A stretch of 64,000 nt of DNA from Sphaerochaeta sp. (GTDB lineage Bacteria; Spirochaetota; Spirochaetia; Sphaerochaetales; Sphaerochaetaceae). The stretch lies in NCBI GenBank assembly GCA_022482495.1, contig JAKVPA010000003.1:208905-272904 (forward strand), given 5' to 3'. Positions within the stretch are counted from its first letter, which is position 1. Every line of letters starts with the position of its first letter. This document shows positions 2,778 to 61,708 of the stretch, piece by piece. The notes beneath the pieces are model-generated. The model was given only the letters and a program-made list of their open reading frames with translations. It made no database searches and was not told the origin of the DNA. The position numbers were made by a program, and so were the translations under genes.

Positions 2778-2783
2778 CGGGAC

Positions 2784-44270: not shown

Positions 44271-44869
44271 GCAGCAAGGAAATGACCTATAACGAAAGAT
44301 ATGCCTTTCTTCTTGATCTTCTTGATGATGACAAATTCATTCGGAAGAAATATGTCGGTGCTGAGATCCCGAACTACATCTGTGCATTTCCACCAGAAGA
44401 TGTCAGCTCATACAACGACATGCTGGAAAATCTAGCAAAGGCTTTAACCAGTAAAGGACGAAAAGTTCTCAAGGTTAACGTGTATGAGATCATGATTGAA
44501 ATGCTTAAGGATTCAGGCGACTTTGAAGATTATCTGGAAGAGCCATCCCTGACACATAAGAAGATCATGGAGGATTTCGAAGGTGTGCTCGACAATGACA
44601 CGGAGTTCGCTCCGAAGGTTGCATCGATTATCAATGAAAGCGTTCCAGGTATCGTTCTCATGAACGGTATCGGAGAGGCTTATCCTTTCATCAGAATCCA
44701 TACGCTTCTTGAAAAGCTGCCGACATTACTCAAACGACTTGTCCCGATAGTCGTCTTCTATCCAGGAAATTACGACAAGGTCACAGGCAGTTCTGCCTTG
44801 CAGCTTTTCGGGAAGCTTGAACATAAGAACTACTACAGAGCATTCAACATATTCACGGAGGTTCGCTGA
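44267..44869 (+). CDS. brxB: BREX protein BrxB (DUF1788)
   Basis: About 200 aa, between brxA and brxC. It overlaps the brxC start by 1 nt (TGATG). Confidence 0.7.
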   Translation: MSSKEMTYNERYAFLLDLLDDDKFIRKKYVGAEIPNYICAFPPEDVSSYNDMLENLAKALTSKGRKVLKVNVYEIMIEMLKDSGDFEDYLEEPSLTHKKIMEDFEGVLDNDTEFAPKVASIINESVPGIVLMNGIGEAYPFIRIHTLLEKLPTLLKRLVPIVVFYPGNYDKVTGSSALQLFGKLEHKNYYRAFNIFTEVR

Positions 44870-47800
44870 TGCCACTGAAATTCGAATCCATCTTCACCAA
44901 TCAGATTGCCAGGGACATAAATGGAGTCATCAATACTGATAGCCAGTCCACTCTTGGAGAGGAGTTCAGCGAATACGTAATCACGAATGAAGTCGCAAAC
45001 TGTCTCGATGGTTTCTTTGAGAAATACAACGAGCACAATCCTATCTACAACGGTGTCTGGATCTCAGGCTTCTTCGGTTGCGGTAAATCACACCTGTTGA
45101 AGATTCTCTCATACCTCATCGCAAACAGCGATATCGATGGGAAGAAGGCTGTCTCGTATTTCGACAACAAGCTCAATGATAATCCGATGCTTCTTGGGCA
45201 GATGAGAAAAGCTGCTGGAATTCCATCCGAGAGCATCCTTTTCAACATCGTCCAGTACAACCAGAATGACAAGTCAGAGCCGATTCTCCACATCTTCCAG
45301 AGGAAGTTCTATGAGCATTGCGGTTACTTTGGAATAAATCCGAAAATCGCTGCATTCGAGATGGAACTCGACAAGGAAGGCCTCTTTGAGAAGTTCAAGG
45401 AAGTCTTCAACCAGGTTTCAGGCAAGGTCTGGGAAGAGGCGAGAAAGAAGCCCAACATCAACAACAGACATATCGCCAAAGCCTTTGCTGAGGTCACAGG
45501 AAATGCTGAAGATCAGGATCTTCTTGACAGCTATGAAGCTGAAATCAGCATTCACGACTTCGCAGTGCAGGTGAAGGAATACATGGATTCTAAAGGATCC
45601 GATTTCCGTCTCAATTTCTTTGTCGATGAAGTCGGTCAGTTTGTTGCAAGATCAAGCCGCCTCATGGTTGATCTCCAGGAGATTGCAACCAGCCTCAGTT
45701 CTGTTACTGCCAACAGGTCCTGGGTCATGGTCACAAGCCAGGATGAGCTTGAGAAGTTCGTGAAGAACCTCGACAAGCAGGACAAGACAGATATCAGCAA
45801 GATCATGGGCAGATTCTATGTGAAGATGTCACTGTCCAATGCCAACGTCAATGAAGTCATCCAGAAGAGGCTTCTTGAGAAGAATGAAGAAGGCAAGAAG
45901 ATTGTCGGATCTGCATATGAGATCCAGAAAGAGAACTTCAACACACTCTTCCAGTTCGTGAACGGGCCGAAAAAATACAGGGTATACAGGGACAAGGATG
46001 AGTTCGTCACGACATATCCATTCGTCACATACCAGTTCGACATGTTCAAGACTACACTTGAAACATTGTCATTGCACAATGCATTCCCAGGTGAGTACAC
46101 GTCAACTGGAGCGAGATCCATGCTTGACGTTTTCCACAAGGTTCTCAGGGACTTTGCGGAGAAAGAAGATTCAAATGTAGGGACATCGCTCATTCCTTAT
46201 GACGTTATGTATGACGGTCTCAAGGATCTCCTGAAAGAGAACTTCAAGAGATCGATAGATCTTGCCGAGAACAACATTGTTGATAACCCGTTTGCAATCA
46301 GAGTCCTGAAGGCACTCCTTCTTGTGAAATACCTTCAGAGGGAATTCAAGCCGACAGCGCATAATCTCAGCGTGCTCCTGCTTACAAGCTTCAATGACAA
46401 CCCTGCAGAGCTTGTCGAGAAGACAGAAGAGGCTCTGTTGAGGCTCACGAAGGAAACCTACATCCAGCGAAATGGCGACCAATATGACTTCCTGACAAAC
46501 GAGGAAAAGGATGTCGAGGAGGAGATAAAGCAGACCTATGTTCCTCCGAAAGATCTCACAGATGAGGTCAAGGCAATCATCTATGACAATATCCTTTCCG
46601 GAGTTACAAAGGCTCAAGATGAAAGAAATCTCACAAGCTATCAGTTCACAAGAAAGATAGACGGAGAGACTGTTGTCTCAAGGAATGCAGAACTGAGCAT
46701 CAACATCCTCACTCCATTCAGCGGAAGCGATTCGCATCCTGAGTACAGCGATACCCTCACATCTCCTGATACAGAGCTAGTGATGCTTTTAAAGCCAGAC
46801 AAGAGGCTTGCAGATGACCTTCTTCTCTACCTGAAGACAAAACAGTATGTGAAGAACAATGCTGGAATGACTGTTTCTGAAGACAGGGAAAAAGTTCTCA
46901 AGGCAAAAGGTGAGAGAAACACGACAAGACGTGAGGAGATTGAGAATGCAGTCAGGGATATGATGAGCGAGGCTGAGTTCTATGTCTCAGGCACAGCTCT
47001 TGATGTAACATCTTCATCTAGAATCGATGCTCGTGTTGAAAGGGCTTTCCAGATTCTCATTGAGAAAGTCTATCCGAACTTGAAGATGATCACAAAAGAG
47101 TCATCAGGAGAGATGAATGCAAGAGGCCTCATTGACAAGAATGTCGATTCCGAGCTCTTTAAGGAGTCAGCATCAGAAGCCGAGACGCAGATCCTCAATC
47201 AGCTGAGGATCGATAAGGAGAGGATCACCACAACAATCTCGTCTCTTCTTGATAAGTTCAGGAAGAAGCCATACGGCTGGCCTGAGACGGCACTGATCTA
47301 CAACCTCATCCTTCTTATGAGGAAGAGCCTCATCAACATTAAGAAGGATGGAAAGGTCGTTGATAATCCTGCAACTCTGAAAGGATTCCTGTTCTCATCT
47401 TCACAGTATGGTCAGACTGTAATCGAGCTCTGCCAGGATATTGATCCAAAGAGAATCAAGGAGCTCAAGAACTTCATTTTTGACTTCACAAACCTGAAGT
47501 GTTCGTATGACGATGCAAAGAACACTGCCAGAATGGCCGCAGATGCAATAAAGAAGACCTATGATGATGTGAGAGACAAAGCCTACTCGCTCAGATACCC
47601 GTTCACTGAGAGCATAAAGGACAAGCTGAAGCTCCTTCAGAATGTTGTAGGACAGGATTATCTCTGGTTCTTCTCTGATGAATTTGAAGACATAAGCGAT
47701 GAGATTCTCGAGGCAAAAGAGGATTATTTTGATAAATTCCTCATATTTACCAGCAGAAAAGAGAACATCGAAAAGTATGAGGATGCTGAACGCCTCATCA

Positions 47801-48342
47801 AACGCAATGAGAGCATAAAGGATCAGCTTGATACTGAATCCTGGAATAAGATTATCGCCATACTGAACGACAAAAACCTATACAGCAATTCATCACTCAG
47901 TGAACTTGATAAACATGTCAGTGCACTCAAGCTCAGCATCTCCCAGCTTGTGACAAAGGCAAAGAATGATGCCCTTGATGATTTCGAGAAATACGCAGAG
48001 TCTGTCCAGAAGGAGACAGCCTATCGTCTGCTCGGAGAAGACCAGAAGGAACATATCAACAGCCTGGTATCAACGGCAAAGACAAAGATAGCAGCAATCT
48101 CTTCGATTGATGAGCTCAACAATACAAACACATTCACCATCAAGGATACGAAGCGTCAGATCAGTGCACTCCTTGAAGAAGGTAAGGAGAAAGCCCAGGA
48201 GAAGAAGATTATCAGGCTTTCAGCAATCCAGGCGTCTCACGTCACTGCTCCTATCAAGACGGCAGATGATGTAACTGCATTCATTGAGAAGCTCAAGAAG
48301 GAAATGATGGACAGAATCAACGAAGGATATACGGTGGAATAA
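44869..48342 (+). CDS. brxC: BREX ATPase BrxC/PglY
   Basis: 1157 aa with an N-terminal P-loop GFFGCGKSHLLKIL and a long alpha-helical C-terminal region. Confidence 0.85.
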   Translation: MPLKFESIFTNQIARDINGVINTDSQSTLGEEFSEYVITNEVANCLDGFFEKYNEHNPIYNGVWISGFFGCGKSHLLKILSYLIANSDIDGKKAVSYFDNKLNDNPMLLGQMRKAAGIPSESILFNIVQYNQNDKSEPILHIFQRKFYEHCGYFGINPKIAAFEMELDKEGLFEKFKEVFNQVSGKVWEEARKKPNINNRHIAKAFAEVTGNAEDQDLLDSYEAEISIHDFAVQVKEYMDSKGSDFRLNFFVDEVGQFVARSSRLMVDLQEIATSLSSVTANRSWVMVTSQDELEKFVKNLDKQDKTDISKIMGRFYVKMSLSNANVNEVIQKRLLEKNEEGKKIVGSAYEIQKENFNTLFQFVNGPKKYRVYRDKDEFVTTYPFVTYQFDMFKTTLETLSLHNAFPGEYTSTGARSMLDVFHKVLRDFAEKEDSNVGTSLIPYDVMYDGLKDLLKENFKRSIDLAENNIVDNPFAIRVLKALLLVKYLQREFKPTAHNLSVLLLTSFNDNPAELVEKTEEALLRLTKETYIQRNGDQYDFLTNEEKDVEEEIKQTYVPPKDLTDEVKAIIYDNILSGVTKAQDERNLTSYQFTRKIDGETVVSRNAELSINILTPFSGSDSHPEYSDTLTSPDTELVMLLKPDKRLADDLLLYLKTKQYVKNNAGMTVSEDREKVLKAKGERNTTRREEIENAVRDMMSEAEFYVSGTALDVTSSSRIDARVERAFQILIEKVYPNLKMITKESSGEMNARGLIDKNVDSELFKESASEAETQILNQLRIDKERITTTISSLLDKFRKKPYGWPETALIYNLILLMRKSLINIKKDGKVVDNPATLKGFLFSSSQYGQTVIELCQDIDPKRIKELKNFIFDFTNLKCSYDDAKNTARMAADAIKKTYDDVRDKAYSLRYPFTESIKDKLKLLQNVVGQDYLWFFSDEFEDISDEILEAKEDYFDKFLIFTSRKENIEKYEDAERLIKRNESIKDQLDTESWNKIIAILNDKNLYSNSSLSELDKHVSALKLSISQLVTKAKNDALDDFEKYAESVQKETAYRLLGEDQKEHINSLVSTAKTKIAAISSIDELNNTNTFTIKDTKRQISALLEEGKEKAQEKKIIRLSAIQASHVTAPIKTADDVTAFIEKLKKEMMDRINEGYTVE

Positions 48343-48343
48343 T

Positions 48344-51300
48344 ATGAAAGGAAGCGCACTTGAACGATTTGCACAGGAAGCAAGAATACAGCTACAGAAA
48401 GAAGTAAGAGCCAGACTCAATCTGATTCAGAAAGGTGATGCCTCAATCGACCTCATCGAGAACAGGAATGCAGTGAATGCACTTAACAAGCATCTTGAGG
48501 AACTCAAAGGTGATGAAGAAGCTCTTGTTGAGGAAGTCGCATACACATGGTTCAACAGAATCTCTGCTCTCCGATTCATGGATGCATCCGGTTACAATGC
48601 CACGCTGATAGTCTCCCCGTCAGAAGGAAAGACACTACCTGAAATTCTTTCTGAGGCACTTTCTGGAATCATTGATGAAGATGTTGTCACAAGCATAAAA
48701 GATAGGGAAAGAATCCGTGGTCTTGTTGACGGCTCAATTACATCAAAGAATCCACAGGCCGAAATCTACCGTATCCTTCTTGTCGCTTCATGCAATCATC
48801 TCAACAACAGCCTTCCTCTTCTCTTTGAGAAGATTGAGGACTATACAGACCTCCTTCTTCCAGATGATCTTCTCTCATCAGAGTCCATAATCACAAAGAC
48901 GGTGAATGCCATCAGCGAGGAAGACACCGCATCCGTCGAGATCATCGGCTGGCTCTATCAGTACTACATTTCAGAAAAGAAGGATGAGGCCTTCGCTTCA
49001 TTCAAGAAAGGAAAGAAGGCTGGCAAGGATGAAATTCCGGCTGCAACCCAGCTCTTCACTCCAGAGTGGATTGTCCGATATCTTGTTGAGAATTCTCTTG
49101 GACGACTATGGATGCTCAATCATCCTGAATCAAATCTCAAGAGTAGGATGAAGTATTTTATAGAACCAACCGACAAGGAAACGGACTTCATCAGACTCTC
49201 AAGTCCAGAAGAGATCAAAGTACTCGATCCATGCTGCGGATCCGGACATATGCTCACATATGCATTCGATCTTCTTTTTGACATCTACGCCGAGTGTGGA
49301 TACACGGACAATGATGCTGTAAAGCACATCATCGAAGACAACCTCTATGGCATTGAAATTGATAAACGTGCTGGGCAGCTTGCTTACTTTGCCCTCATGA
49401 TGAAAGCCCGTGAGAGAAGCAGAAGAATACTGAGAAAAGGAATTGAACCCAACATTTGCATTCTCCAGAAAGTCGAATTTGACAAAGAAGAGCTTCCAAA
49501 CGTCATAAACCTCTTTGAAAATCCATCTCTGACAATCATGGATCTGATGAACGATTTCAAAGATGCAGACATCCTCGGATCTCTCATCACTCCATCGATA
49601 TCGAACATAGCTGCACTGAAAGCAACACTCAGGAAAGATCTGGAATCCGGAGACATGCTTTCAGATGAATACACCCTCGCAAAAAGGGTAAAGGCAGTAT
49701 TGGATCAGGCTGAGTATCTGGCAGGGAAATACAGCATTGTAATCACAAACCCACCGTACCTTGCCCCTTCTTCATCAGATCCGATACTTCAGAACTTCGC
49801 TAAAGGCCAGTACCCAAACAGCAAAACAGATACCGGTACGATGTTCATTGAACGCAACTTCAAATTCATCCCTAAGAATGGCTATGTTGCAATGATTACC
49901 TTGCATAGCTGGATGTTCCTTTCAAGTTTTGAAAAACTGAGAGATGAAGTCATTAACAACAGATCAATCCTTTCTATGATTCATATTGGAGCAAGGGGCT
50001 TTGATACAATCGGTGGCGAGGTAGTTTCCACAACTGCGTATGTCCTCTCTGGGGAGAATGGGACCACAGGGGTTAAGGGGCAGTATGTCCGTCTTGTTGA
50101 TGGCCAATCTGAAGCGGAAAAATCCAATTCACTATCCGTTGCAATCTCAAATCATGATTGTGGATATTACTTTGAAGTATCAGCAGATCAGTTTGAGAAG
50201 ATTCCAGGAAGTCCGATTGCTTACTGGGCATCTCCGCGTGTAAGAGAAATCTATTCTTCATCTGTATCAGCTGGAACAATTGCCGAATTCAAACATGGAA
50301 TGAGTACTGGTAAAAATGAAGCAGTTGTCAGGTTCTGGCCTGAGGTCATATTCTCTGACATCGCATTCAATTCTACCTCACATGAAAGTTTCTATTTTTC
50401 TGGAAAAAAATTTGTTCCATATAATAAAGGAGGAGAATATAGGAAATGGTATGGTAATCAAGAGTATATCCTAGGATATGATAAAAAATACGATGCTCTG
50501 ATGGATTCTTTCTCAGGTCATAGGCATGACAATAAAGATACATATTTCAAAGAAAATATTTCTTGGTCCAAGATTTCCAGTGGAGATTTGGCAATGAGAT
50601 TTTTTCCACATGGTTTTGTCTATGATGTTGCAGGCTGTTCCGCATTTACTACTCATGTATATATCAAATATCTACTTGCTTTCTTTAATCTAAAGGTTAA
50701 AGATTTACTTGTTTCTGCATTATCTCCGACATTAAACTTTGAGGTTGGGCAACTAAGGAATGCTCCAATTATCATAAAAGAATCATCGATTGAAAATGTT
50801 TCAAAACAAGTAGATAAGAGTATTTCAATCTCTAAAGCTGACTGGGACTCCTTCGAAACCTCTTGGGATTTCTCCATTCATCCTTTGCTTGATAAGAACA
50901 TCATTGAGACTGATGGCTTCGCATTTGATGATGATCTGGAGCTTCAGGAATATCTTGGAGATGATGAGTATACCAAGATTTTCAAGAATGGAATTGATGG
51001 TTCAAGGACTGCATGGAGCCCCATTGAGTTTGCATATCTCCGTTATAAGGACTGGGCTAACAAGGCATTCTTTCACCTAAAGAAGAATGAGGAAGAGCTG
51101 AACAGAATCTTCATCGATATCTATGGTCTTCAGGATGAGCTTACTCCGGAAGAAGATGATTCGATGGTGTCAGTGCATAGGATCTTTGATTCAAAGGCAG
51201 AGATTCCAGAGTCAATGAAGAAAGGACAGTATGCACTTACCAAGGAAGATGTCATCAAGTCATTCATCTCCTATGTGGTCGGCTGCATGTTTGGACGCTA

Positions 51301-51901
51301 TGATGCTTCACGCCTAGGGCTTGCATTTGCAGGTGGTGATTTTGATATCTCCTCATACTCTGAATTTGTTCCAGATGCAGATAACGTCATTCCTGTTCTT
51401 GGAGACTCCTGGTTCAAGAACGATGCTGAGACTTATTTCATCAAGTTTGTTGAGAAAGTATTCGGACATGACAGTCTCAATGAAAATCTCAAGTTCATTG
51501 AGAATGCTCTTGGGAAATCAATCAGGGAATACTTCTATAAGGACTTCTACAAGGATCATCTGAAGACTTATCAGAAGAGGCCGATCTACTGGATGTTCTC
51601 ATCTCCAAAGGGATATTTCCAGGCATTGGTATACATGCACCGTTATAATGAGAATACAGCAAATATCGTGCTGGATTACCTGAGAAAGTTCAGAGAAAAG
51701 ATTCAGTTCCAGATAAAACTGGCAGACGAGGCGGGTGAGACCAAGAAGAAGGTCGAATATGAGAATATAGACAAGGATCTCAATGATTATGAGGTGAATA
51801 TCCTTTTTCCTCTTGCAATCAAGCATCTTACATTCGATCTTGATGATGGAGTGAAGGTGAATTATCAGAAGCTCGGGAATGCTCTGAAACCAATCAAGTG
51901 A
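48344..51901 (+). CDS. pglX: BREX adenine-specific DNA methyltransferase PglX
   Basis: 1185 aa. SAM-binding region VLDPCCGSGHML and catalytic motif ITNPPY (YSIVITNPPYLAP). Confidence 0.85.
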   Translation: MKGSALERFAQEARIQLQKEVRARLNLIQKGDASIDLIENRNAVNALNKHLEELKGDEEALVEEVAYTWFNRISALRFMDASGYNATLIVSPSEGKTLPEILSEALSGIIDEDVVTSIKDRERIRGLVDGSITSKNPQAEIYRILLVASCNHLNNSLPLLFEKIEDYTDLLLPDDLLSSESIITKTVNAISEEDTASVEIIGWLYQYYISEKKDEAFASFKKGKKAGKDEIPAATQLFTPEWIVRYLVENSLGRLWMLNHPESNLKSRMKYFIEPTDKETDFIRLSSPEEIKVLDPCCGSGHMLTYAFDLLFDIYAECGYTDNDAVKHIIEDNLYGIEIDKRAGQLAYFALMMKARERSRRILRKGIEPNICILQKVEFDKEELPNVINLFENPSLTIMDLMNDFKDADILGSLITPSISNIAALKATLRKDLESGDMLSDEYTLAKRVKAVLDQAEYLAGKYSIVITNPPYLAPSSSDPILQNFAKGQYPNSKTDTGTMFIERNFKFIPKNGYVAMITLHSWMFLSSFEKLRDEVINNRSILSMIHIGARGFDTIGGEVVSTTAYVLSGENGTTGVKGQYVRLVDGQSEAEKSNSLSVAISNHDCGYYFEVSADQFEKIPGSPIAYWASPRVREIYSSSVSAGTIAEFKHGMSTGKNEAVVRFWPEVIFSDIAFNSTSHESFYFSGKKFVPYNKGGEYRKWYGNQEYILGYDKKYDALMDSFSGHRHDNKDTYFKENISWSKISSGDLAMRFFPHGFVYDVAGCSAFTTHVYIKYLLAFFNLKVKDLLVSALSPTLNFEVGQLRNAPIIIKESSIENVSKQVDKSISISKADWDSFETSWDFSIHPLLDKNIIETDGFAFDDDLELQEYLGDDEYTKIFKNGIDGSRTAWSPIEFAYLRYKDWANKAFFHLKKNEEELNRIFIDIYGLQDELTPEEDDSMVSVHRIFDSKAEIPESMKKGQYALTKEDVIKSFISYVVGCMFGRYDASRLGLAFAGGDFDISSYSEFVPDADNVIPVLGDSWFKNDAETYFIKFVEKVFGHDSLNENLKFIENALGKSIREYFYKDFYKDHLKTYQKRPIYWMFSSPKGYFQALVYMHRYNENTANIVLDYLRKFREKIQFQIKLADEAGETKKKVEYENIDKDLNDYEVNILFPLAIKHLTFDLDDGVKVNYQKLGNALKPIK

Positions 51902-51902
51902 G

Positions 51903-53432
51903 GTGAGGATGGAAGATTTCGAATTGCAGAACATAGAATACAAAGTCATCTGGAAGAAGGAGTTTCTTGATGAGATTTGTGGAATGGCCAACGCTTCCGG
52001 TGGGAAGATATATATCGGCAAAGATGACGATGGCAACACTGTGGATCTTGGAGTCAATGAGACCAGAAGATTGCTTGAAACAATTCCTAACAGCATAGTC
52101 CAGGCTCTGAACTACTCTAATGTCTCTGTTGATGCAAAAAGAGATGACAATGGCCTCTATATCGAGATTATAGTTCACAAATCAGACTCTCCTGTCTTCT
52201 ATCAGGGAAGCATGTACAAGCGTATCGGGACTGCCAATTTCAAAGTGGAAGGAACTCAGCAGCAGAATGCTTTGATTGAAGTCAGGAACAGGACATGGGA
52301 TTCATCTGTTGTAGACAATGTCTCGATTGATGACCTCGATGAAGAGAGTTTCCAGATCTTCAGGGAAGAGGCTGTTGCATCTGGCCGCATAAGCGGCAAA
52401 GCCCTTGAAAGCAGAGAGAAGATTCTTGAAGAGCTTGAGCTTATCAAAGATGGAAAGCTTACCGTTGCTGCTGTTCTCCTGTTCCATAGAAAACCATCAA
52501 AAGTGGTACCAGGCGCATCCATACTTATTGGCAAGATGAGAAATGATGCGGATGTAGTGAGCAGTGATGAGATAAAAGGATCTCTGATGATGCTCAGCAG
52601 AAGCATCCTTGATATCCTGAAGGTGAAATATCTTTATGCACTCATATCCTACGACATGCCTACAAGGATTGAGACATATCCATACCCGTTTGATGCACTT
52701 AGAGAAGCAGTTTTCAACTCTTTAATGCATAACGACTGGTCATCTGGCCAGTCCATTCTGATTAAGGTTTATGATCATTCGCTCAGCATACTCAACAGGG
52801 CTATTGTTGATGAGGACTGGACTGTAGAACACCATAAATCTAGGCATATCAATCCGCTCATATCAAATGCATTCAATAAAGCCGGACTTGTTGAAAAATT
52901 CGGAACAGGAATCACCAAGATGATTGATTCATGCAAGGACGCTGGAAATCCTGAACCATTGTTTGAGACAGCTTCCACTGGCCTTGATTTCTGCGTGACA
53001 TTCCAGGCTTCCAAACTATACAAGGCAATCGAAAAATATAGGGCATTGAATAGCGACTCTGTTGTTGACTACCGAAAGGTACTTGCCCAGATGGATAAAC
53101 TGACAGAGGAAAGTCCTGTTGGCAGTATAAATGATACTGATGGCAGTTTAAATGGCAGAATAAATGAAGCTGATGGCAGATTAACCAGATTCTTGGCAAA
53201 TAAGAAAACTGCAGAGACTTCAGAAGAAGATTCTGTATATTTCAGGAAGGTACGGATTCTTTCGGAACTGAAAGGAAAACCTCAAAGCACAATTGAACAA
53301 TTGGTATCAGTATTGGCTATTCCAGAAAGAACAATCTACAGGGATATTGAGTGGTTGAGAGAAAACGGCTATCTGGAACGTCTTGGCTCAAAGAAATCTG
53401 GTTCATGGCATGTAATCAAGGAGCTTGAATAA
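51903..53432 (+). CDS. COG2865-like protein (AlbA_2/Schlafen-like N-domain, HATPase_c_4-like middle domain, C-terminal winged HTH), embedded between pglX and pglZ
   Basis: N-terminus KVIWKKEFLDEICGMANASGGKIYIGKDDDGNTVDLGV (AlbA_2 signature). C-terminus QLVSVLAIPERTIYRDIEWLRENGYLERLG (wHTH). It starts 2 nt after the pglX stop and overlaps the pglZ start by 8 nt. Confidence 0.7.
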   Translation: MRMEDFELQNIEYKVIWKKEFLDEICGMANASGGKIYIGKDDDGNTVDLGVNETRRLLETIPNSIVQALNYSNVSVDAKRDDNGLYIEIIVHKSDSPVFYQGSMYKRIGTANFKVEGTQQQNALIEVRNRTWDSSVVDNVSIDDLDEESFQIFREEAVASGRISGKALESREKILEELELIKDGKLTVAAVLLFHRKPSKVVPGASILIGKMRNDADVVSSDEIKGSLMMLSRSILDILKVKYLYALISYDMPTRIETYPYPFDALREAVFNSLMHNDWSSGQSILIKVYDHSLSILNRAIVDEDWTVEHHKSRHINPLISNAFNKAGLVEKFGTGITKMIDSCKDAGNPEPLFETASTGLDFCVTFQASKLYKAIEKYRALNSDSVVDYRKVLAQMDKLTEESPVGSINDTDGSLNGRINEADGRLTRFLANKKTAETSEEDSVYFRKVRILSELKGKPQSTIEQLVSVLAIPERTIYRDIEWLRENGYLERLGSKKSGSWHVIKELE

Positions 53433-55938
53433 GATGAATGATACCTTGTTAAGCAATCTCGCAAAGCAATTTGAATCACATAGGGTCGTTTTCTGGTATG
53501 ATCCATCTTCAGAGTTCTCAGATCAGCTTGATCTGATGCCGGATGATGTTACGCTCATCAGAGCTTCGGAATACAATGACTTTGCAATCAAGTACAGACT
53601 CCTGACAGAAGAGCCAGAGAAGAAGTTCTTGGTCTACTATGAGAAGGATGAGCCTGAGTATGAGGACAACTGGCTTCTCGATATCCAGCTTGCAAACACG
53701 GTGTTCAGAACGGACAAGGAATCCATTATCCTCTCAGATCTGGATTTGCCGCATGCTTTCATAGGAACTCTAAGAAAGCATCTTCCGTTCTTCGACAACA
53801 AGAAACTTGTGAAGAAGCTTGATTCATTGGTAAGCCCGGATATGAGTGAGGATGCCTTTGAACATCTGCTTCTTGCGATTACAGCTGGAGAAGACTCCTT
53901 CAATCTCCAGATGATCATCGATTCCCTTGTTGCTGACTATGCTGATGACGGAGATCTTTATGAGACGGTAAAGGAATACGGGCTTGATTCACTCTTATGG
54001 AATGATATTGCTACTCTCTACGGCTATTCGAAGGAAAATCCGGGTATAGAAGATTTCTATCTTTCGGTATACGAGACATCACTTCAGCACTTTCTTGGTT
54101 CTGCAACAGCACTCCAGGCGGATGCATATGGTCTACTGAAACACTGGAAGGATTCGGCAAAATTCAAAGATTCCGGACTATATAAAACACTCTCAGATAA
54201 AGCAGCTGAGGAACTTTCTGCGCCTAAGCATCTGGCTGATATCTCCATCGAGTCTCTCTCTGCCTTTGATGATTATGCCTTCGTCGAAGAAGAGATCATC
54301 GCAAGGCTTACAGCAAGTGCACTGAATCAGACAATGGGATTAGAAGCAATCAGGCAGATTGCAGAGAGAAGGAGAAGTTCATTCTGGTACTCAGAGTACA
54401 GCTCAGCTTATCAGAGCATAGTGCTGGCAAAGACGATGCTGGATGCTGTGAAGAACATCTCATTCACAATGGACAGCCCTGATGCCGGAATCAGCAAGTA
54501 TGTTAAAGAATGGTCTCATATAGACAATGCATACAGAAACTTCAAGATCCAAGTCCATGGATGCCTGAACATCAATTCAGACATGGAGGCACTTTCAGAT
54601 AAAGTCGAAGCATCTTATGTGACCAATTTCCTCATTCCTCTTGGAGAGAAGTGGACACCGTTTGCAAAGGAAATGCTTGAGAAAGGCTGGCGGACAGAGG
54701 GAGGAATCCAGCGACAAGGAATCTTCTATCACTATAACATCAAGAATCTACAGTTAAGGGGAAACAAGGCTGTTGTCCTCATTTCTGATGCAATGCGTTA
54801 TGAAATTGGCGAAGAGCTTGTAAGCGAAATAAATTCCCAGCAAAGATACAAGGCAGCAATCCAGCCTCTGCTTGCATCAGCGCCGACATACACTCAGCTT
54901 GGCATGGCATCTCTGCTTCCGCATGAGACGCTTATGATCTCTCCCGATGGAAGCGCAGTCTATGCGGATGGTGTAAGCACACAGGGGATTGTGAATAGGG
55001 AAAAGATCCTGAAGAATGCATCAGATGGTAAGGCCGTGGCATTGGATTCAGATGATGTCCTCAAGATGAAGAGCGATGATCTCAGGACTGTCATCAAGGA
55101 CAACTCTGTAATCTATGTCTACCATGACCTCATTGACCGTGAGGGAGAGGACAATCTTTTCAAGGCATCTCATGAGGCAATTGATGAGCTTAAAAACATC
55201 ATCAGAAAACTTGGATCTTCCAATGCGAATACAATCTATGTCACAGCAGATCACGGCTTCCTGTTCCAGGAGAGTGACCTTGAGTCTCATCAGTACATCT
55301 CTGACGGATCTGTCAGAGGAAAGGATGTCCATCAGGTCAGTGGAAGACGTTGTGCAATAGGCTACGACCTTGTGCCCTCTGATTCCCTTATGATTGCAAA
55401 GCTGAAGGATATAGGACTCTCTAACGAGGATGACCTCGAAGTTGCATTCCCCAATTCAATTCTCAGGATGAGAGTGCAGGGAGCGAACACGAACTTCGTA
55501 CATGGAGGACTCTCTCTTCAGGAGATCATCATCCCTCTCATCAAAGTCGATAAGGCCCGCAAGGACGACATAACAGATGTCTCAATCGAGATACTCACGA
55601 ATCTGAAGACAATCACCACAGGAAGTGTCGCTGTGACGTTCTTCCAGGAGGATTATGTCTCAGACAAGGTTCAGGGCTATGAAGCCACATTCGGCTTCTA
55701 TTCTCAGGACGGTACTGCAATCTCTGATATCGAGAAGAGGACAATTGCAAGTGAGGCGATAGATCCGAAGAAGAGGGAATTCCAGATTGTGTTCTACCTG
55801 AACAAGGAATCTGAGAAATACAACAGACGGCCAGTGTTCCTGAGAATACAGAAGATCCTTCCATCCGGCAGGACTCTGATGATTGCTGAAAAGGAATGCA
55901 TTCTCTCACGCTCGATTAGTTCGGATTTTGATTTCTAG
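53425..55938 (+). CDS. pglZ: BREX alkaline-phosphatase-superfamily protein PglZ
   Basis: 837 aa with the PglZ signature IYVTADHGF. Confidence 0.85.
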   Translation: MNKMNDTLLSNLAKQFESHRVVFWYDPSSEFSDQLDLMPDDVTLIRASEYNDFAIKYRLLTEEPEKKFLVYYEKDEPEYEDNWLLDIQLANTVFRTDKESIILSDLDLPHAFIGTLRKHLPFFDNKKLVKKLDSLVSPDMSEDAFEHLLLAITAGEDSFNLQMIIDSLVADYADDGDLYETVKEYGLDSLLWNDIATLYGYSKENPGIEDFYLSVYETSLQHFLGSATALQADAYGLLKHWKDSAKFKDSGLYKTLSDKAAEELSAPKHLADISIESLSAFDDYAFVEEEIIARLTASALNQTMGLEAIRQIAERRRSSFWYSEYSSAYQSIVLAKTMLDAVKNISFTMDSPDAGISKYVKEWSHIDNAYRNFKIQVHGCLNINSDMEALSDKVEASYVTNFLIPLGEKWTPFAKEMLEKGWRTEGGIQRQGIFYHYNIKNLQLRGNKAVVLISDAMRYEIGEELVSEINSQQRYKAAIQPLLASAPTYTQLGMASLLPHETLMISPDGSAVYADGVSTQGIVNREKILKNASDGKAVALDSDDVLKMKSDDLRTVIKDNSVIYVYHDLIDREGEDNLFKASHEAIDELKNIIRKLGSSNANTIYVTADHGFLFQESDLESHQYISDGSVRGKDVHQVSGRRCAIGYDLVPSDSLMIAKLKDIGLSNEDDLEVAFPNSILRMRVQGANTNFVHGGLSLQEIIIPLIKVDKARKDDITDVSIEILTNLKTITTGSVAVTFFQEDYVSDKVQGYEATFGFYSQDGTAISDIEKRTIASEAIDPKKREFQIVFYLNKESEKYNRRPVFLRIQKILPSGRTLMIAEKECILSRSISSDFDF

Positions 55939-55948
55939 GAGGTAACAG

Positions 55949-58033
55949 GTGAAAGAGTTTGATCAGAAGATACATGATGCCTTTCCTGGTCTTGTAGTGA
56001 GAAAAGACCTGGTGAAGGAAGTGAAGGGAAATGCGATTGTCCCTTCCTACGTGCTTGAATACCTCCTCGGGCAGTACTGTGCTACAGATGATCAGGAAAC
56101 AGTCAAAGCCGGGATTGAGAGTGTCAAATCAATCCTCGCAGCACACTATGTGCATCGAAATGAGGCAAACAAGATCAGAGCTGAGATAAGCGAGCGTGGA
56201 CAGAAGAAAGTCATCGACATGATCTCTGTCACATTCAATGAGAAGAAGGACACATACGAAGCGTCTTTCTCCAACCTTGGAATCTCTAAGGTGCTTGTTG
56301 ATTCCGACACCATCAAGAAACATCAGAAATTGCTTGTGAATGGTGTATGGTGTATTGCTACCGTGAGCTATCAGCTGGATGAGGAATCAAAGGACTCTTC
56401 TCCCTGGCATATTGAGAATCTGAAGCCAATACAGCTCTCAAACTTCGACTTCGACATGTTCCTTGCTGGCAGAAAACAATTCACTTCCGAGGAGTGGATC
56501 GATGTTCTTATGCAGTCAATTGGATTCAATCCAGAGATGTTTTCAAAGCGCCTCAAACTTCTGCACCTACTCCGCCTTGTGCCATTTGTAGAGAGAAACT
56601 ACAACCTCATAGAGCTCGGCCCGAAAGGAACTGGAAAGAGCCACATCTATTCTGAGATGTCTCCATATGGAATGCTGCTTTCCGGTGGAGAAGTCACTGT
56701 TGCAAAGCTCTTTGTGAACAACAACCGCAATCAGCTTGGACTTGTCGGATTCTGGGATGTCGTTGCATTCGATGAATTCGCAGGACAGGCGAAGAAGGTT
56801 GATAAAGCCTTAGTTGATATCATGAAGAACTACATGGCCAACAAATCTTTCTCTCGTGGTATCGAAACGATGCACGCTGAAGCTTCAATGGTCTTTGTCG
56901 GCAATACAAAGCATACAGTACCATATATGCTGAAGAACTCGGATCTCTTTGAAGAGCTTCCAAGTGCATACCATGATTCAGCTTTCATCGACCGTATCCA
57001 TGCTTTCGTTCCTGGATGGGAGTTTGACAGCATTCGCTTTGACATGTTCTCGGATGGTTATGGATTCATAGTTGATTACCTTGCGGAGATGCTCCGCTAT
57101 ATGCGTAACCGTGATTACTCGAACATTTATCAGGACTACTTTACGCTCTCTTCTGATATCACGACAAGAGATAAGGATGGCATTAACAAGACATTCTCCG
57201 GACTGATGAAGCTTATCTATCCTAACGGCGAAGCTACAAAGGAAGAGGCAAAAGAGATTCTGGAATTTGCAATTGAACAGAGAAAGAGAGTCAAGGATCA
57301 GCTTGTTCGCATAGATGCGACATTCTATGACACTGAGTTCAGTTACCTTGACAATTCTTCAAAAGAGAAGATTCAGATTCTTGCCCGGGAGGAGAAGGAG
57401 TTCCCGGAGCTTTACAAGAAGCAGGCAAGCGAGGCAAGCCCTGAAGAAAAGAGAAAGCCAGAGAAACAACAAGCTGAGGATACACAAACCATTCCGGACT
57501 CTCTTAAATCCAATGCCAAGATACTGGGGCCTTTGTTTCCTTCTCCAAAAGCAGGCAACTTCCGCTACGAAGAAGATCAGAGCGGAGTATCCTACGAGAA
57601 GCTCTTTGGAGAATATCTTGAAGGAGCTACTCGGATTGAGATTCAGGATCCATACATCATCAAGCCTTATCAGACAAGAAATCTGATGGAGTTCCTGGAA
57701 GTCGTATATCATCACAAGAAACCGGAAGATGAAGTGACTGTTTCTCTTCTTACAAAAGCTGACAGGGATTACTTTGAAGATCAGGATATGAGACTGTCGA
57801 GAATTAAAGACAGCGCAGCTCTCATCGGCATTGATTTCGAATACTCCTATGATGGCACTGATACGATTCATGATAGAAACATCATTTTGAATAATGGTTG
57901 GAAGATCATTCTCGGAAGAGGACTCGATATCTTCCAAGTATTCGACACAGATATGCTTTCATTTGCGTCTAAGGTACAGGAAATCAGGAAATGCAAGGCA
58001 TTTGAAATTACGTATATTTTGCAGGGCATGTAA
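55949..58033 (+). CDS. brxL: BREX Lon-like protease/ATPase BrxL
   Basis: 694 aa. AAA+ motif LGPKGTGKSHIYSEMSP and a Lon-like C-terminal domain. Confidence 0.85.
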   Translation: MKEFDQKIHDAFPGLVVRKDLVKEVKGNAIVPSYVLEYLLGQYCATDDQETVKAGIESVKSILAAHYVHRNEANKIRAEISERGQKKVIDMISVTFNEKKDTYEASFSNLGISKVLVDSDTIKKHQKLLVNGVWCIATVSYQLDEESKDSSPWHIENLKPIQLSNFDFDMFLAGRKQFTSEEWIDVLMQSIGFNPEMFSKRLKLLHLLRLVPFVERNYNLIELGPKGTGKSHIYSEMSPYGMLLSGGEVTVAKLFVNNNRNQLGLVGFWDVVAFDEFAGQAKKVDKALVDIMKNYMANKSFSRGIETMHAEASMVFVGNTKHTVPYMLKNSDLFEELPSAYHDSAFIDRIHAFVPGWEFDSIRFDMFSDGYGFIVDYLAEMLRYMRNRDYSNIYQDYFTLSSDITTRDKDGINKTFSGLMKLIYPNGEATKEEAKEILEFAIEQRKRVKDQLVRIDATFYDTEFSYLDNSSKEKIQILAREEKEFPELYKKQASEASPEEKRKPEKQQAEDTQTIPDSLKSNAKILGPLFPSPKAGNFRYEEDQSGVSYEKLFGEYLEGATRIEIQDPYIIKPYQTRNLMEFLEVVYHHKKPEDEVTVSLLTKADRDYFEDQDMRLSRIKDSAALIGIDFEYSYDGTDTIHDRNIILNNGWKIILGRGLDIFQVFDTDMLSFASKVQEIRKCKAFEITYILQGM

Positions 58034-58054: not shown

Positions 58055-59584
58055 TCAAAAGATTTTGGGTTTCTTATATTCCTTTAACTTTATTTCCTTA
58101 TTTGGTTCCCCTATGAAATATATTTTCTTTTTTGCTCGTGAGACAGCAACGTAAAAATTACGAACATCCCAATAATTAAGATTACCTTTGGATTTCCTTG
58201 CATAATATCTTCTATTGCTTTCATTGTTAGCATGACTTGCTAGGCGATCCATCTCCCCTGAAATATCAATAATTACAGCATCGAACTCCAATCCTTTGGA
58301 TAATACTGTTCTTGTTGAAACTTTGTTTGGCAAAATCTCTTCAGTAAAAGTATAAAGGGAATTATACGCTTCCTCCAAAGAACAATCATTTATAATTGCG
58401 CATTCTAAAATATTGGTAAGTTGTTTATAAAATCCAAACCTTACACATGAAAATTCTTTATGAGTCTTAACCCATATAAGTATTTCCTTTATTTTGGAAT
58501 ATCTATTCTTTTGTTCAGATTCATTAGAAGAAATTTCTGCTAAATCCTTAAACAGCTGCAGTAAATCAGGATAATTATTTCTTTTCCACCCATCAAAATT
58601 TTGTTGTGCAATTTTTTCCTGCATAGTTGATAAGTGTTTATCAATATTTGAGAATACAATTTTGAAGATGTCAAACAATAGTGATAAATTTGTTACTTGA
58701 GCATCAAGTTCTTTGAGTTTCTCAGTCAGGATAGTATCATCTTTTTTTTCATGGTATCCATATCTACCACCAGTACGTCTGTTGAAGAACAGTTGGATAT
58801 CTTCATTTCGAGCAATGAATGCTATAGTGTTTTCTTTGTCGGATAGTTCAGGTAACTTCTCGAAAATATCTTGTGGCGGTATGTAAGAAATATATTCAGT
58901 TGGCTCCGGAGCAATAATATTGCATCCAGATCCGTTGTGGTCTGCTTTGTAAAGCTCTTGTCGCAGATTCGAAATCCATTGTCCGAGTGCTGGATTTGTT
59001 TGCTTCCATCTCCAGGGTATTGTTAAGGAGGTATACTCGCAACTTTGAGATATGGTGTATAAATCACAAGGTGTTTCACTTTTATTTTGACCAAAATAGA
59101 ATATCCCTTGTAGAGGATCACCTAATATAGTCATTGGAAGGATTTGCCCTAAAGTACCAATCAAAAGATCATGCTGCGATAGCGTGCAATCTTGGTATTC
59201 ATCTACTATAACCTGTGAATATGCAATTTTGATTATATGTTGCATCCAGGGATAATTCAGTAGCCTAGAAGTCGAATTGTAGAGATTAGGATAATAGTGT
59301 GTACCTGGATATTGATATGGCAAACAATAGTGAAATCTTGCAGATTTAGGATAAGCTTTACACCAGTACATGCAGAATGACGCTATAGTAGCAATCTCGT
59401 ACTTATTACTAGCAATAGAATATTTAGCAAGTCTATTCTTTATTGCTGCAACACCTGCTCTTGTGTGCGTGAGCAGAAGAACCTTTCTGGCGTCAGTACT
59501 TTCATCTACAATTTGGACAAGCCGTTCTGTCTTTCCATATCCAGCAGGAGCTTCAATATATGTGGCAGGTACTACTTGAGCCAT
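58055..59584 (-). CDS. gajB: Gabija GajB, UvrD-like superfamily-1 helicase
   Basis: Walker A APAGYGKT, motif II VIVDEYQD and motif VI YVAVSRAKKKIY. About 509 aa. Its start overlaps the gajA stop by 13 nt. Confidence 0.8.
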   Translation of the reverse strand: MAQVVPATYIEAPAGYGKTERLVQIVDESTDARKVLLLTHTRAGVAAIKNRLAKYSIASNKYEIATIASFCMYWCKAYPKSARFHYCLPYQYPGTHYYPNLYNSTSRLLNYPWMQHIIKIAYSQVIVDEYQDCTLSQHDLLIGTLGQILPMTILGDPLQGIFYFGQNKSETPCDLYTISQSCEYTSLTIPWRWKQTNPALGQWISNLRQELYKADHNGSGCNIIAPEPTEYISYIPPQDIFEKLPELSDKENTIAFIARNEDIQLFFNRRTGGRYGYHEKKDDTILTEKLKELDAQVTNLSLLFDIFKIVFSNIDKHLSTMQEKIAQQNFDGWKRNNYPDLLQLFKDLAEISSNESEQKNRYSKIKEILIWVKTHKEFSCVRFGFYKQLTNILECAIINDCSLEEAYNSLYTFTEEILPNKVSTRTVLSKGLEFDAVIIDISGEMDRLASHANNESNRRYYARKSKGNLNYWDVRNFYVAVSRAKKKIYFIGEPNKEIKLKEYKKPKIF

Positions 59585-61323
59585 TTAATTATCCCTGAAA
59601 TTAGCTTTTCAAAAGTAGAATTCCCTGTTCCATTTTCATTGAAAGATTCAAACAAAAGAGGAAATAGAATTTCTGCACAGCGATAACTTTTAAATATTTT
59701 ATTTTGATTTGCGAAATCCCCTAGCTTCGCTCTGTCATTCACCATAATCTCGATTTTCTTTTCCAAAGAATTTAGAATTTCTTGTTGAAATAGGTCATTG
59801 GATTGAAGATACGATGGCAAATTTCTGATAAAGGACTCTGGTGCATCATTGGCGATTTGATTTTCAATACAATTTCCATCATCCATTTGAAAAATAACAA
59901 AAGAAGAAAATATATCCTGTACTTCTTTTACTTTTTTTACATCGCATGGTTTATCAGAATCCATTACAACACATGTAGTATATCCAAGTCGAATAAGTAA
60001 TGATGCAATCTTAGATGAATTACTTCCACCATTGCCGTCTATGTAGTCAACTCCATAACATGCGAGGCTTGAATTATTTCTGTTAAAGAAATAAGAGTCT
60101 ATCGCTTTAATTAATTCAAATTCGGTATGGCCTTCGCAAATAATTATTTTCCTTCCTAGCAGACATTTATTAAAACGACGAAATGCTTTTTGTAAATCAT
60201 CTGTATCACAAAGAGACCCAACAGAATACAATCGATCATCTTCTTCTGTGGTTTGTAGAATGAATACCTCATCGAACTTACAGGAATCCAATGTAATTGG
60301 CGAATGGGTAGTAAAAATTATTTGACCATTATCTTTAACTCTATCTCGTAACAAAGAAATCAGAGTTCTAATTCTGAACGGTTCTAAGGACGTTTCAATT
60401 TCATCGATAAGAACTAAGGTCTTATTTATTTTTGTTTCAAGGTTCAATGCTATTGAGGTGAGCCGTTGCGAACCAAGCCCTCTTGATGATAAAGACTTCT
60501 CTCCTTCAAAAACTAAAATAGAAGAATCTGCGTTCTTAAAGTCTAAATGATTAGATAACTCTCCGGAAAGTGAAACCCCATACTTATTAAGTATTTGAGG
60601 GATATTTGATAATGCCTCATCTAGCGGTTTTGACACATCCGCTTCTCCAATTGAGGCAGATTGTAATGCTTTTACAGATAAATGCTTTAAATCTGATTTC
60701 AGATCGGATCCAGAATAATATTTTCTTAAAACAGAGCCCTGTCCCCATGCAAGATCTTTTCTACAGTCAAGTCCTATAGACGAAACATTTAATACCTTTC
60801 TGTCAGATTGTCTAAAGAAAGTAGGTTCTTGCGCATCACTAACAATAGTCCATTCAGGATCAAATGAGCTAGATATTGTTAAACGTGCTCTCAAATATAA
60901 ATGATTAGAATCTTCAGGCTCCCTGAATGTTTCAATTTCCTTCCAGGATCGACCTCCAATAACATCATCTGAAGAACTTTGCACTTTAGAATTTTCAGGA
61001 AATGTTCTTGGTCGTGGGGCTTCTTTTTTTCCTGGCTTGGTTAAATATCTGCCATACTTATCAGGGAGGAGGAAAGCTTCCGGGAAATCAGTGAATGTTG
61101 CTTCTATGGCTATACTATTCGTAATATCACATTTGTAAAAATCAGAAATAGAAACATTTAGAGCGTTTGTTGGATAAAATAACCATTCCACAGCTCTCAA
61201 TAGACTTGATTTGCCACTATCGTTTTTCCCAATTATGCAAATCAGATTATTTGAGCTTGAAAAACTATGTGAAAAATGATCTATGCCTCGAAAATTATTT
61301 ATACAGATATCGAGAATCCTCAT
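59572..61323 (-). CDS. gajA: Gabija GajA, OLD-family ABC-ATPase plus TOPRIM nuclease
   Basis: N-terminus MRILDICINNFRGIDH and Walker A GKNDSGKSSLL. TOPRIM motifs IIICEGHTEFELIKA and VVMDSDKP. About 583 aa. Confidence 0.8.
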   Translation of the reverse strand: MRILDICINNFRGIDHFSHSFSSSNNLICIIGKNDSGKSSLLRAVEWLFYPTNALNVSISDFYKCDITNSIAIEATFTDFPEAFLLPDKYGRYLTKPGKKEAPRPRTFPENSKVQSSSDDVIGGRSWKEIETFREPEDSNHLYLRARLTISSSFDPEWTIVSDAQEPTFFRQSDRKVLNVSSIGLDCRKDLAWGQGSVLRKYYSGSDLKSDLKHLSVKALQSASIGEADVSKPLDEALSNIPQILNKYGVSLSGELSNHLDFKNADSSILVFEGEKSLSSRGLGSQRLTSIALNLETKINKTLVLIDEIETSLEPFRIRTLISLLRDRVKDNGQIIFTTHSPITLDSCKFDEVFILQTTEEDDRLYSVGSLCDTDDLQKAFRRFNKCLLGRKIIICEGHTEFELIKAIDSYFFNRNNSSLACYGVDYIDGNGGSNSSKIASLLIRLGYTTCVVMDSDKPCDVKKVKEVQDIFSSFVIFQMDDGNCIENQIANDAPESFIRNLPSYLQSNDLFQQEILNSLEKKIEIMVNDRAKLGDFANQNKIFKSYRCAEILFPLLFESFNENGTGNSTFEKLISGIIKWLK

Positions 61324-61426: not shown

Positions 61427-61708
61427 TTAAATCAACCTTGCAAATAGCAATATTACAGTGAGATGCAGTGGATAGTAAGCATAGAAAACTAATCCGGGAA
61501 TCCTACCTTTTCCTTGTTCTTCCGCTTGGATTCTCAGTGCATAGATAACCGCAGAAGCCAGAAATACGGATATTGTCCCTGCAATATATTCCACTTGAGT
61601 TTCACCGTAGAGGATAGTTCTGAGAATGAAATATGAAGCAGGTATCAGAATTAGCTTTAGTTCCCTGTGAGAAATTCTACTTACAATCTGCCTTTTTCGG
61701 GATTTCAT
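61427..61708 (-). pseudogene. C-terminal fragment of a TraX-family membrane-protein gene, displaced by the IS insertion
   Basis: Hydrophobic C-terminus ...VFYAYYPLHLTVILLFARLI. The N-terminal part of the same family lies at 63413..63900. Confidence 0.4.

Follow-up and report, generated by a model that had tools for sequence, protein, structure and literature searches.

Prokaryotic Schlafen domains can act as phage-triggered tRNases that cause abortive infection, and Ex4(E/D)xK is the catalytic motif of Schlafen RNases (Perez Taboada et al., Nat Microbiol 2026). RorSlfn5, a characterised member, is a phage-triggered, Mn-dependent tRNase whose Ig-like sensor recognises the T5 tail assembly chaperone, and the second most frequent prokaryotic architecture (19.2%) is the HisKinase-HTH class, with a histidine-kinase-like domain and a helix-turn-helix (HTH) (Perez Taboada et al., Nat Microbiol 2026). 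The supradomain formed by SLFN and PF13749, named Schlatpase, occurs in 58.6% of prokaryotic SLFN proteins; most Schlatpase proteins are short, with or without a C-terminal HTH (bioRxiv 2026.05.29.728809). In RzAgo, in which SLFN is joined to a prokaryotic Argonaute (SLFN-pAgo), PF13749 binds and hydrolyses ATP, E314 and N318 coordinate Mg-ATP, and ATP binding drives a tetramerisation that rebuilds the two-lobed Schlafen nuclease (bioRxiv 2026.05.29.728809). According to a further survey, proteins made of a Schlafen domain, a minimal histidine kinase and a winged helix-turn-helix (wHTH) are linked to bacteriophage exclusion (BREX) loci in at least 1017 taxa and are read as backup suicidal endoRNases (NAR 2026, PMC12839542). 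Here we analysed a gene of this architecture lying between pglX and pglZ of a type 1 BREX operon in a 64,000-nt stretch of Sphaerochaeta sp. DNA (assembly GCA_022482495.1, contig JAKVPA010000003.1, positions 208,905 to 272,904 of the forward strand; hereafter the window). Judged from its sequence, the gene is a member of the class termed pSlfn HisKinase-HTH or Schlatpase-HTH, an arrangement already described in 2025-2026; because architecture, BREX linkage and embedding have all been published, the locus is an instance of a described phenomenon. A first-pass annotation of the window had considered the role of such genes unresolved, a view now dated, since the BREX-linked class has been catalogued and the activation of prokaryotic Schlafen tRNases by phage has been demonstrated. 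On balance, we favour the interpretation that the gene encodes an abortive-infection Schlafen tRNase that is embedded in the BREX operon, co-transcribed with it, probably autonomous, and carried in a cargo slot.

The window contains a complete type 1 BREX operon at positions 43686-58033 (+), in the order brxA-brxB-brxC-pglX-[Schlafen gene]-pglZ-brxL, and all six type 1 core genes were matched in one orientation by PADLOC and NCBIfam. The open reading frame (ORF) that the first-pass annotation had placed between pglX and pglZ, at 51903-53432 (+), is borne out by the ORF list, PADLOC and NCBIfam. Directly 5′ of it lies pglX, the gene of the BREX-1 adenine methyltransferase (48344-51901, +; PADLOC PglX E = 0; NCBIfam BREX_1_MTaseX 1248 bits), and directly 3′ of it lies pglZ (53434-55938, +; PADLOC PglZ 1.6e-214; TIGR02687 613 bits). 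The longest ORF of the Schlafen gene runs from GTG 51903 to 53432 (+). The in-frame ATG 51909 is, however, most likely the start, because the Shine-Dalgarno-like GAGGTGA read in the sequence at 51900-51906 (+), which overlaps the pglX stop codon (51899-51901), precedes it, homologues start at the same Met and gene callers agree. In the alignment of 53 homologues the proteins start at the aligned Met of ME(D/N/G)FELQN, with M1 nearly invariant. The Schlafen-GHKL ATPase-winged helix gene thus delimited (51909-53432, +) encodes 507 aa plus the stop codon, so that the gene reported earlier stands while its length of 509 aa most likely does not; its description draws on the ORF list, the sequence, Pfam, AlphaFold2 (AF2), Foldseek, identical proteins and the ratio of nonsynonymous to synonymous divergence (dN/dS). 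Similarly, the longest pglZ ORF begins at TTG 53425, and the start is most likely ATG 53434, which is preceded by AAGGAG at 53418-53423; M1 and N2 of PglZ are invariant in five aligned PglZ sequences (alignment A3). Gene callers on identical contigs chose the same starts for both genes, and the gene calls of loci L001-L006 show the same 7-nt spacer between pglX and the Schlafen gene.

With these starts, the spacers are about 7 nt upstream and 1 nt downstream of the Schlafen gene. The 1-nt spacer and 8-nt overlap given previously arose because longest-ORF starts were taken, and the tight coupling that they were meant to illustrate remains. A consensus scan found no terminator-like site at either junction of the Schlafen gene. 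The first-pass annotation had raised the possibility of a promoter of its own, and promoter matches occurred only at the frequency seen in shuffled sequence, with a consensus that may differ from spirochaete promoters. The G+C content of the gene is 0.41-0.44, compared with 0.34-0.47 for the remaining operon, in which the minimum falls in the 3′ part of pglX. The gene lies mid-operon without an intergenic region of its own. It is nested in a multi-gene system on the same strand, as embedded defence genes are (Payne et al. 2024). Among embedded defence systems, 96.7% are co-oriented with the host system and most embedded genes are defence genes (Payne et al. 2024).

The three domains proposed earlier were recovered: the AlbA_2 and HATPase_c_4 domains score above their Pfam cut-offs, and the winged helix is backed by AF2, Foldseek and profile matches. 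The AF2 model, built from 53 homologues, has a mean predicted local distance difference test (pLDDT) score of 84, and its full-length Foldseek match in the PDB is 3LMM (E = 4.5e-22). The SLFN_AlbA_2 nuclease domain occupies residues 5-112 (51921-52244, +; Pfam 5.2e-10, 40.3 bits, cut-off 25.3). Its Ex4ExK motif, formed by E5, E10 and K12 (51921-51944, +), is invariant in the 53 homologues. The homologue alignment also places the acidic residues D39-D41 in this domain (52023-52031, +), and an acidic residue at 39 or 40 is present in 27 of the 27 homologues displayed (of 53 aligned). In the family profile, Ex4ExK and the following GG-x-IG-x-DD segment align with ESQSIEFK...GGSLFIGVDD of the SLFN11 C-lobe, and the comparison with Schlafen cores that had been proposed earlier returned SLFN13 and SLFN14 as Foldseek matches.

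C-terminal to the SLFN domain is a GHKL (Bergerat-fold, histidine-kinase-like) ATPase domain at about residues 226-366 (52584-53006, +), recognised from Pfam, Foldseek and conservation; the Pfam HATPase_c_4 match (PF13749) covers residues 280-365 (1.3e-12, 47.9 bits, cut-off 26). Foldseek matches for this domain are histidine kinase CA domains and pyruvate dehydrogenase kinases (PDK). The homologue alignment locates an N-box, REAVFNSLMH (R265-H274; 52701-52730, +), and a lid motif, FGTGI, with G332 and G334 (52899-52913, +). Across the 53 homologues, N270, H274, G332 and G334 do not vary, and E266 is conserved in at least 90%; E266 and N270 correspond to E314 and N318 of RzAgo. The first-pass annotation had described the middle region as a degenerate ATPase. 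Because the GHKL catalytic Glu, the Mg-binding Asn (E266-x3-N270) and the Gly-rich lid are all conserved, the domain is instead minimal but not degenerate.

A low-complexity linker, predicted to be disordered, follows at residues 402-440 (53112-53228, +); its pLDDT is below 50, its alignment columns are poorly conserved, and its length and sequence vary across homologues. The C-terminal wHTH (residues 442-502; 53232-53414, +) is modelled by AF2 as helices in 442-485 and a beta hairpin at 489-502. It has Foldseek matches to ArsR, MarR and AspA with a probability of 1.0 and profile matches to solved wHTH regulators, and HTH_11/HTH_DeoR Pfam matches at residues 446-491 (1.4e-3) fall under their cut-offs. 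Z-alpha domains are very short winged helices and are present among the fold and profile matches of this region. A Z-alpha (Z-DNA-binding) identity was rejected, because the key Tyr falls on Glu in a manual alignment, which is our own reading and not tool output.

No NCBIfam model matches the Schlafen protein. PADLOC matches it in part to Argonaute-associated and pAgo models and weakly to CasR, and since these matches are only partial and weak, PADLOC v2 has no dedicated model for it. Two further identities were considered and set aside. RecG-like helicase is a frequent database name, and the JGI (Joint Genome Institute) names of relatives do use RecG. It is a misnomer, as the first-pass annotation had suspected: no superfamily 2 helicase family is found among the Pfam matches with E ≤ 1, and none in NCBIfam. 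A BrxR-type regulator was likewise rejected, there being no WYL match in Pfam and the gene lying mid-operon and not at the head of the locus.

A census was taken of 80 environmental type 1 BREX loci, retrieved from JGI metagenomes via PglZ; the PglX C-terminus was visible upstream in 71. Their PglZ proteins are only 33-36% identical to that of the window, hence this is a general census and not one of close relatives. The result showed that pglX directly adjoins pglZ in 33 of the 71 loci, that short gaps separate them in 5, and that one to four genes lie between them in the other 33. Direct succession of pglX and pglZ, which the first-pass annotation had regarded as canonical for type 1 BREX, thus holds for the first group and fails for the last. 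The cargo comprises AAA_21/AAA_15 ATPases of the AbiL, PARIS or HEC-01 kind (12) and GmrSD (8), and also DUF1016/YhcG, PDDEXK_3 nucleases, Shedu and SIR2-HerA. A Schlafen gene with HATPase_c_4 occupies the slot in 2 of the 71 loci, once together with a PD-(D/E)XK candidate and SIR2-HerA (L139) and once together with AbiLi/AbiLii (L151). These results demonstrate that the pglX-pglZ junction serves generally as a cargo site, with the Schlafen gene as one cargo among many.

Schlafen-like genes were also found elsewhere in BREX loci, namely upstream of pglX, between two pglX segments and after brxL. In L164 (460-6063), two segments homologous to PglX (query residues 1-642 and 608-1184, in this order) flank a Schlafen-like ORF (about 2421-3545); pglX there is either split by insertion or partly duplicated.

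In the close lineage of gut spirochaetes, the identical protein is present on seven metagenome contigs. The identical protein and relatives with 97%, 87%, 82% and 67% identity occupy the pglX-pglZ slot in gut-metagenome loci (L001-L006, L008, L201, L088/89 and L090/91), of which L008 derives from an uncultured Spirochaetaceae genome. A 44% identical Schlafen protein is encoded in the same slot in L009 and L094/95, where BrxC and PglZ are just 32-35% identical to those of the window. One further close relative, L007 (82%), was set aside as a standalone case: the protein is N-terminally truncated and a PglX C-terminal remnant lies just upstream, and because this is a decayed BREX locus, L007 is not independent evidence.

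To these were added four PglZ relatives chosen regardless of the presence of a Schlafen gene. In the first (L201; PglZ 94% identical to the window), the slot holds a Schlafen gene whose product is 87% identical. In the second (L202/203; PglZ 92%), a BREX remnant without brxA to pglX carries, before pglZ, a 242-aa fragment (32%) that belongs to another Schlafen lineage. In the third (L204; PglZ 60%), the Schlafen protein in the slot is 38% identical and nearest to the non-BREX L096 type. In the fourth (L205/206; PglZ 52%, PglX 64%), the slot is empty and the six core genes are intact. These data show that the Schlafen gene is facultative and exchangeable, though the slot in this lineage is usually filled by some Schlafen gene. 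A core component would be expected in most or all type 1 BREX loci; this was not found, given that only 2 of the 71 census loci have a Schlafen gene in the slot and that L205 lacks it. As to the remnant itself, only the 242-aa GHKL-wHTH fragment, pglZ and brxL are left of the operon (L202 8168-13482; L203 202-5516), and an Abi_C gene, then SLATT and ADP-ribosylglycohydrolase genes follow it.

Beyond this lineage the family is mostly unconnected with BREX. In the count of BREX-borne against other copies that the first-pass annotation had proposed, 78 of the 80 best species-level genome relatives (32-45% identity) lacked any BREX gene within 10 kb. No recurrent partner gene was found, since no neighbour cluster occurs in more than 5 of 81 loci (L007-L087; BLAST clustering, positions -4 to +4). 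Nor was there a recurrent neighbour family, the 131 immediate neighbours holding 143 Pfam families, none of them in more than four proteins. Relatives were found on plasmids, once adjoining a type I restriction-modification gene, and on viral or proviral contigs. In a neighbour-joining tree of the Schlafen sequences, the gut-lineage BREX copies form one superclade, which also holds three non-BREX members (L092, L093 and L096); the genes of L093 and L096 are solitary and lie in variable regions. A separate deep clade (L139, L151 and L164) is BREX-linked as well. The closest non-BREX relative (55% identity) is found in L092 (1-11611), 113 nt downstream of DndH-like, DUF4007 and SspC-like genes, a set that is another modification-linked defence module.

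The Schlafen gene is under purifying selection, with a dN/dS of 0.15 against L008 and 0.05 against L088. Its dN against L088 is 0.083, and those of BrxL, BrxC and PglZ are 0.076-0.19. Synonymous divergence from L008 is 0.10 for the Schlafen gene and 0.25-0.86 for the flanking genes, and the low value for the Schlafen gene points to a mosaic history.

Other parts of the operon vary in their own ways. BrxL of L009 (14129-16207) and L094 (14135-16219) is 93-94% identical to that of the window, and the other BREX proteins there are 26-52% identical; the sequences suggest that brxL was recently exchanged between distant BREX operons. Inside pglX, positions 50231-50830 of the window have a G+C content of 0.34-0.36 and find no nucleotide match in loci that are otherwise nearly identical. 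Compared with L001, the flanks of this segment are 91.6% (left) and 99.6% (right) identical, and L008 has a similar gap at about window positions 50032-50840, save one 82-nt match at 77%. The segment looks like a swapped target-recognition cassette, in which case sister loci would differ in their BREX motifs.

By analogy with homologues, from which tRNase activity, ATP-driven assembly and abortive infection are all taken over, the protein could work as follows. The SLFN_AlbA_2 domain would be a Mn/Mg-dependent endoribonuclease that cuts tRNA, with E5, E10, K12 and the acidic residue at 39 or 40 as the likely catalytic residues. Because this domain matches just one lobe of the mammalian Schlafen nuclease, it may be active only once oligomerised, and oligomerisation would be driven by ATP binding to the GHKL domain through E266, N270, G332 and G334. 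The linker and the winged helix would form a sensing or autoinhibitory part, probably acting via nucleic acid binding. A phage cue would release the nuclease, and tRNA cleavage, a stop of translation and aborted infection would follow, providing a second defence layer against phages that escape or inhibit BREX. Embedding would give co-expression and co-transfer, and BREX proteins would not be required for function. Of the three roles offered by the first-pass annotation (sensor, regulator or accessory effector), the accessory effector fits best, given that the slot hosts many unrelated autonomous systems and that most relatives are non-BREX; the regulator is disfavoured by the conserved enzymatic residues and by a separate HTH gene in the locus, described below.

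Several observations weigh against this interpretation. HisKinase fusions were among the architectures assayed, but only the DUF262 and Ig-like fusions protected, and no HisKinase-type prokaryotic Schlafen has been shown to be protective as a standalone gene (Perez Taboada et al., Nat Microbiol 2026). The GHKL domain has N-R-A as its G1-like motif, as against N-P-G in distant relatives, and for this reason ATP binding is not certain. In the BREX lineage of gut spirochaetes, almost every locus has a Schlafen gene in the slot (window, L008, L201, L088, L090, L204, L009 and L094), and Schlafen divergence roughly tracks that of the core genes in L008, L088, L090 and L009/L094. Such occupancy and co-divergence would also fit a functional tie to BREX. 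A strict co-divergence was considered and rejected, as it fails for L204 (PglZ 60%, Schlafen 38%) and for L202/L203 (PglZ 92%, fragment 32%).

The alternative that survives best takes up this tie and supposes a guard wired to BREX, in the manner of PrrC and EcoprrI. PglX, PglZ or BrxB would hold the Schlafen tRNase latent, and release would come when a phage inhibits BREX, by an Ocr-like DNA mimic or an S-adenosylmethionine (SAM) lyase, or when BREX detects unmethylated DNA. The gene would then be a Schlafen counterpart of PrrC-EcoprrI. The conserved slot and the tight coupling agree with such a guard, as do the enrichment of the Schlafen superclade in BREX loci (the eight just named) and the retention of a Schlafen gene in the exact slot across nearly all BREX loci of the lineage, even after exchange of the Schlafen lineage. 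The second deep BREX-linked lineage (L139, L151 and L164) and the position of the nearest non-BREX relative, L092, behind a modification-dependent Dnd/Ssp-like system can be read in the same way. In the literature, embedded systems have been proposed to respond to anti-BREX proteins, and the PrrC precedent has been discussed (Payne et al. 2024). However, most members of the family stand by themselves among mixed neighbours, the slot also takes in many unrelated autonomous systems, Schlafen lineages have been swapped beside nearly identical or related PglZ (L202/L203 and L204), L205 lacks the gene, and the standalone L093 and L096 fall inside the same superclade. We therefore regard a wired guard as possible but rather unlikely. 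The more specific suggestion of the first-pass annotation, a coupling to PglZ or BrxL, finds no support.

At the head of the operon is a 67-aa ORF (43486-43689, +) with weak HTH_17, HTH_59 and MerR matches, whose stop codon overlaps the brxA start (ATGAATGA). An ORF of the same length, 67 aa, is found at this position before brxA in L001, L090 and L094, and a WYL (BrxR-like) gene lies upstream in L094. The 67-aa ORF may encode a small regulator of the operon that differs from the WYL-type BrxR.

It is improbable that the Schlafen protein itself regulates the BREX operon through its winged helix, in a BrxR-like role with the Schlafen and GHKL parts as ligand sensors, given that its enzymatic residues are conserved and that the operon begins with a small HTH gene of its own. 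The idea draws on the resemblance of the C-terminal wHTH to ArsR/MarR/DeoR-type regulators, on the weak match to the CasR model and on NCBI names of relatives such as 'putative DNA binding domain-containing protein'. For a pure regulator, the nuclease triad and ATPase residues that are invariant here would be superfluous. The gene is mid-operon with no intergenic region of its own, and the HTH_17/MerR-like gene (here and in L001, L090 and L094) and the WYL gene of L094 offer other regulators. Most relatives are not beside a conserved operon, and the related BREX locus L205, judged from its intact genes, works without the gene.

The protein is very unlikely to be an obligate structural subunit of BREX, needed for methylation or restriction in this spirochaete lineage. 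Near-universal presence in the lineage and a divergence comparable to that of the core genes (against L088, as given above) would agree with it. On the other side, pglX directly adjoins pglZ with six intact core genes in L205/L206, the same adjacency is seen in 33 of the 71 other type 1 loci, and divergent Schlafen lineages replace each other in the slot. Well-studied BREX systems work with the six core genes only. Hardly any more credible is an inactive passenger, or a non-defence function with an incidental location: a share of prokaryotic Schlafen genes (30.4%) lacks a neighbouring defence gene (Perez Taboada et al., Nat Microbiol 2026) and decayed copies exist (the truncated L007 beside its PglX remnant and the 242-aa fragment of L202/L203), but the gene is under purifying selection, its catalytic residues are intact, the identical protein recurs in several samples, and the surroundings are rich in defence, with BREX around it and Gabija adjoining.

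The remaining genes of the operon are brxA (43686-44270, +; PADLOC BrxA 1.8e-35), brxB (44246-44869, +; PADLOC BrxB 2.3e-44), brxC (44869-48342, +; PADLOC BrxC E = 0) and, as the last gene, brxL (55949-58033, +; PADLOC BrxL E = 0; TIGR02688). Tail to tail with brxL lies a Gabija system at 58055-61323 (-), consisting of gajB (58055-59584) and gajA (59572-61323), and a gajB-gajA pair also follows brxL in L001, L003 and L201. The BREX-Gabija island is bracketed by an IS1595-like transposase gene (42006-43004, -) and a DDE_Tnp_1 transposase gene (61677-62522, -), and G+C, which is about 0.50 before position 43000, falls to 0.31-0.46 within the island. Upstream of the island lies an AAA_14/DUF4143 ATPase gene (37832-38854, +); members of this family also lie close to the Schlafen relatives of L007, L093 and L096 and account for 3 of the 131 neighbours of distant relatives.

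As an observation on a genome, the present work repeats two recent surveys. What it gains are the corrected gene boundaries, the recognition that the ATPase domain is not degenerate, and a small independent census in which roughly every second type 1 BREX locus has cargo in the pglX-pglZ slot. The HisKinase-HTH class is among the commonest Schlafen architectures, yet no member has a known trigger or a demonstrated phenotype, and a compact operon with a translationally coupled Schlafen gene is a clean setting for deletion and point-mutant tests. At stake is whether embedded tRNases act alone or guard their host system, a question that bears on the organisation of layered immunity.

Among known systems, the class catalogued in the NAR 2026 survey (PMC12839542) shares with the window protein the three-domain architecture and a location inside or adjoining BREX core loci; that catalogue contains no experiments and, in its accessible part, does not single out the pglX-pglZ slot or this uncultured lineage of gut spirochaetes. 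With the pSlfn HisKinase-HTH class the protein shares an Ex4(E/D)xK SLFN domain, a histidine-kinase-like domain and an HTH; the characterised RorSlfn5 differs in having an Ig-like sensor. The sole solved full-length relative is DIP2311 of Corynebacterium diphtheriae (PDB 3LMM), matched by profile over residues 17-457 (E = 8.9e-17) at about 15% identity, a structural-genomics entry without assigned function. RzAgo has PF04326 and PF13749 in the same order and the GHKL catalytic E-x3-N, and the PADLOC pAgo and Aga models match residues 97-367 of the window protein. Unlike RzAgo, however, the window protein has no Argonaute core, and because a short wHTH replaces the guide-dependent sensor, its trigger must differ.

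PrrC in the EcoprrI type Ic restriction-modification locus offers a parallel, a tRNA nuclease that is kept latent and is encoded between genes of a methylation-based defence system. Its fold is unrelated, combining an ABC-ATPase with an anticodon-nuclease domain, so that the likeness is one of analogy and not of family membership; control by the host system has been demonstrated for PrrC, whereas for the window protein it is a mere possibility. BrxU/GmrSD on pEFER and the PARIS-, AbiL- and HEC-01-like ATPases occupy the same kind of BREX slot in the same orientation with different proteins and mechanisms, and the pglX-pglZ slots of our census hold these same embedded kinds, GmrSD and PARIS/AbiL/HEC-01-like ATPases.

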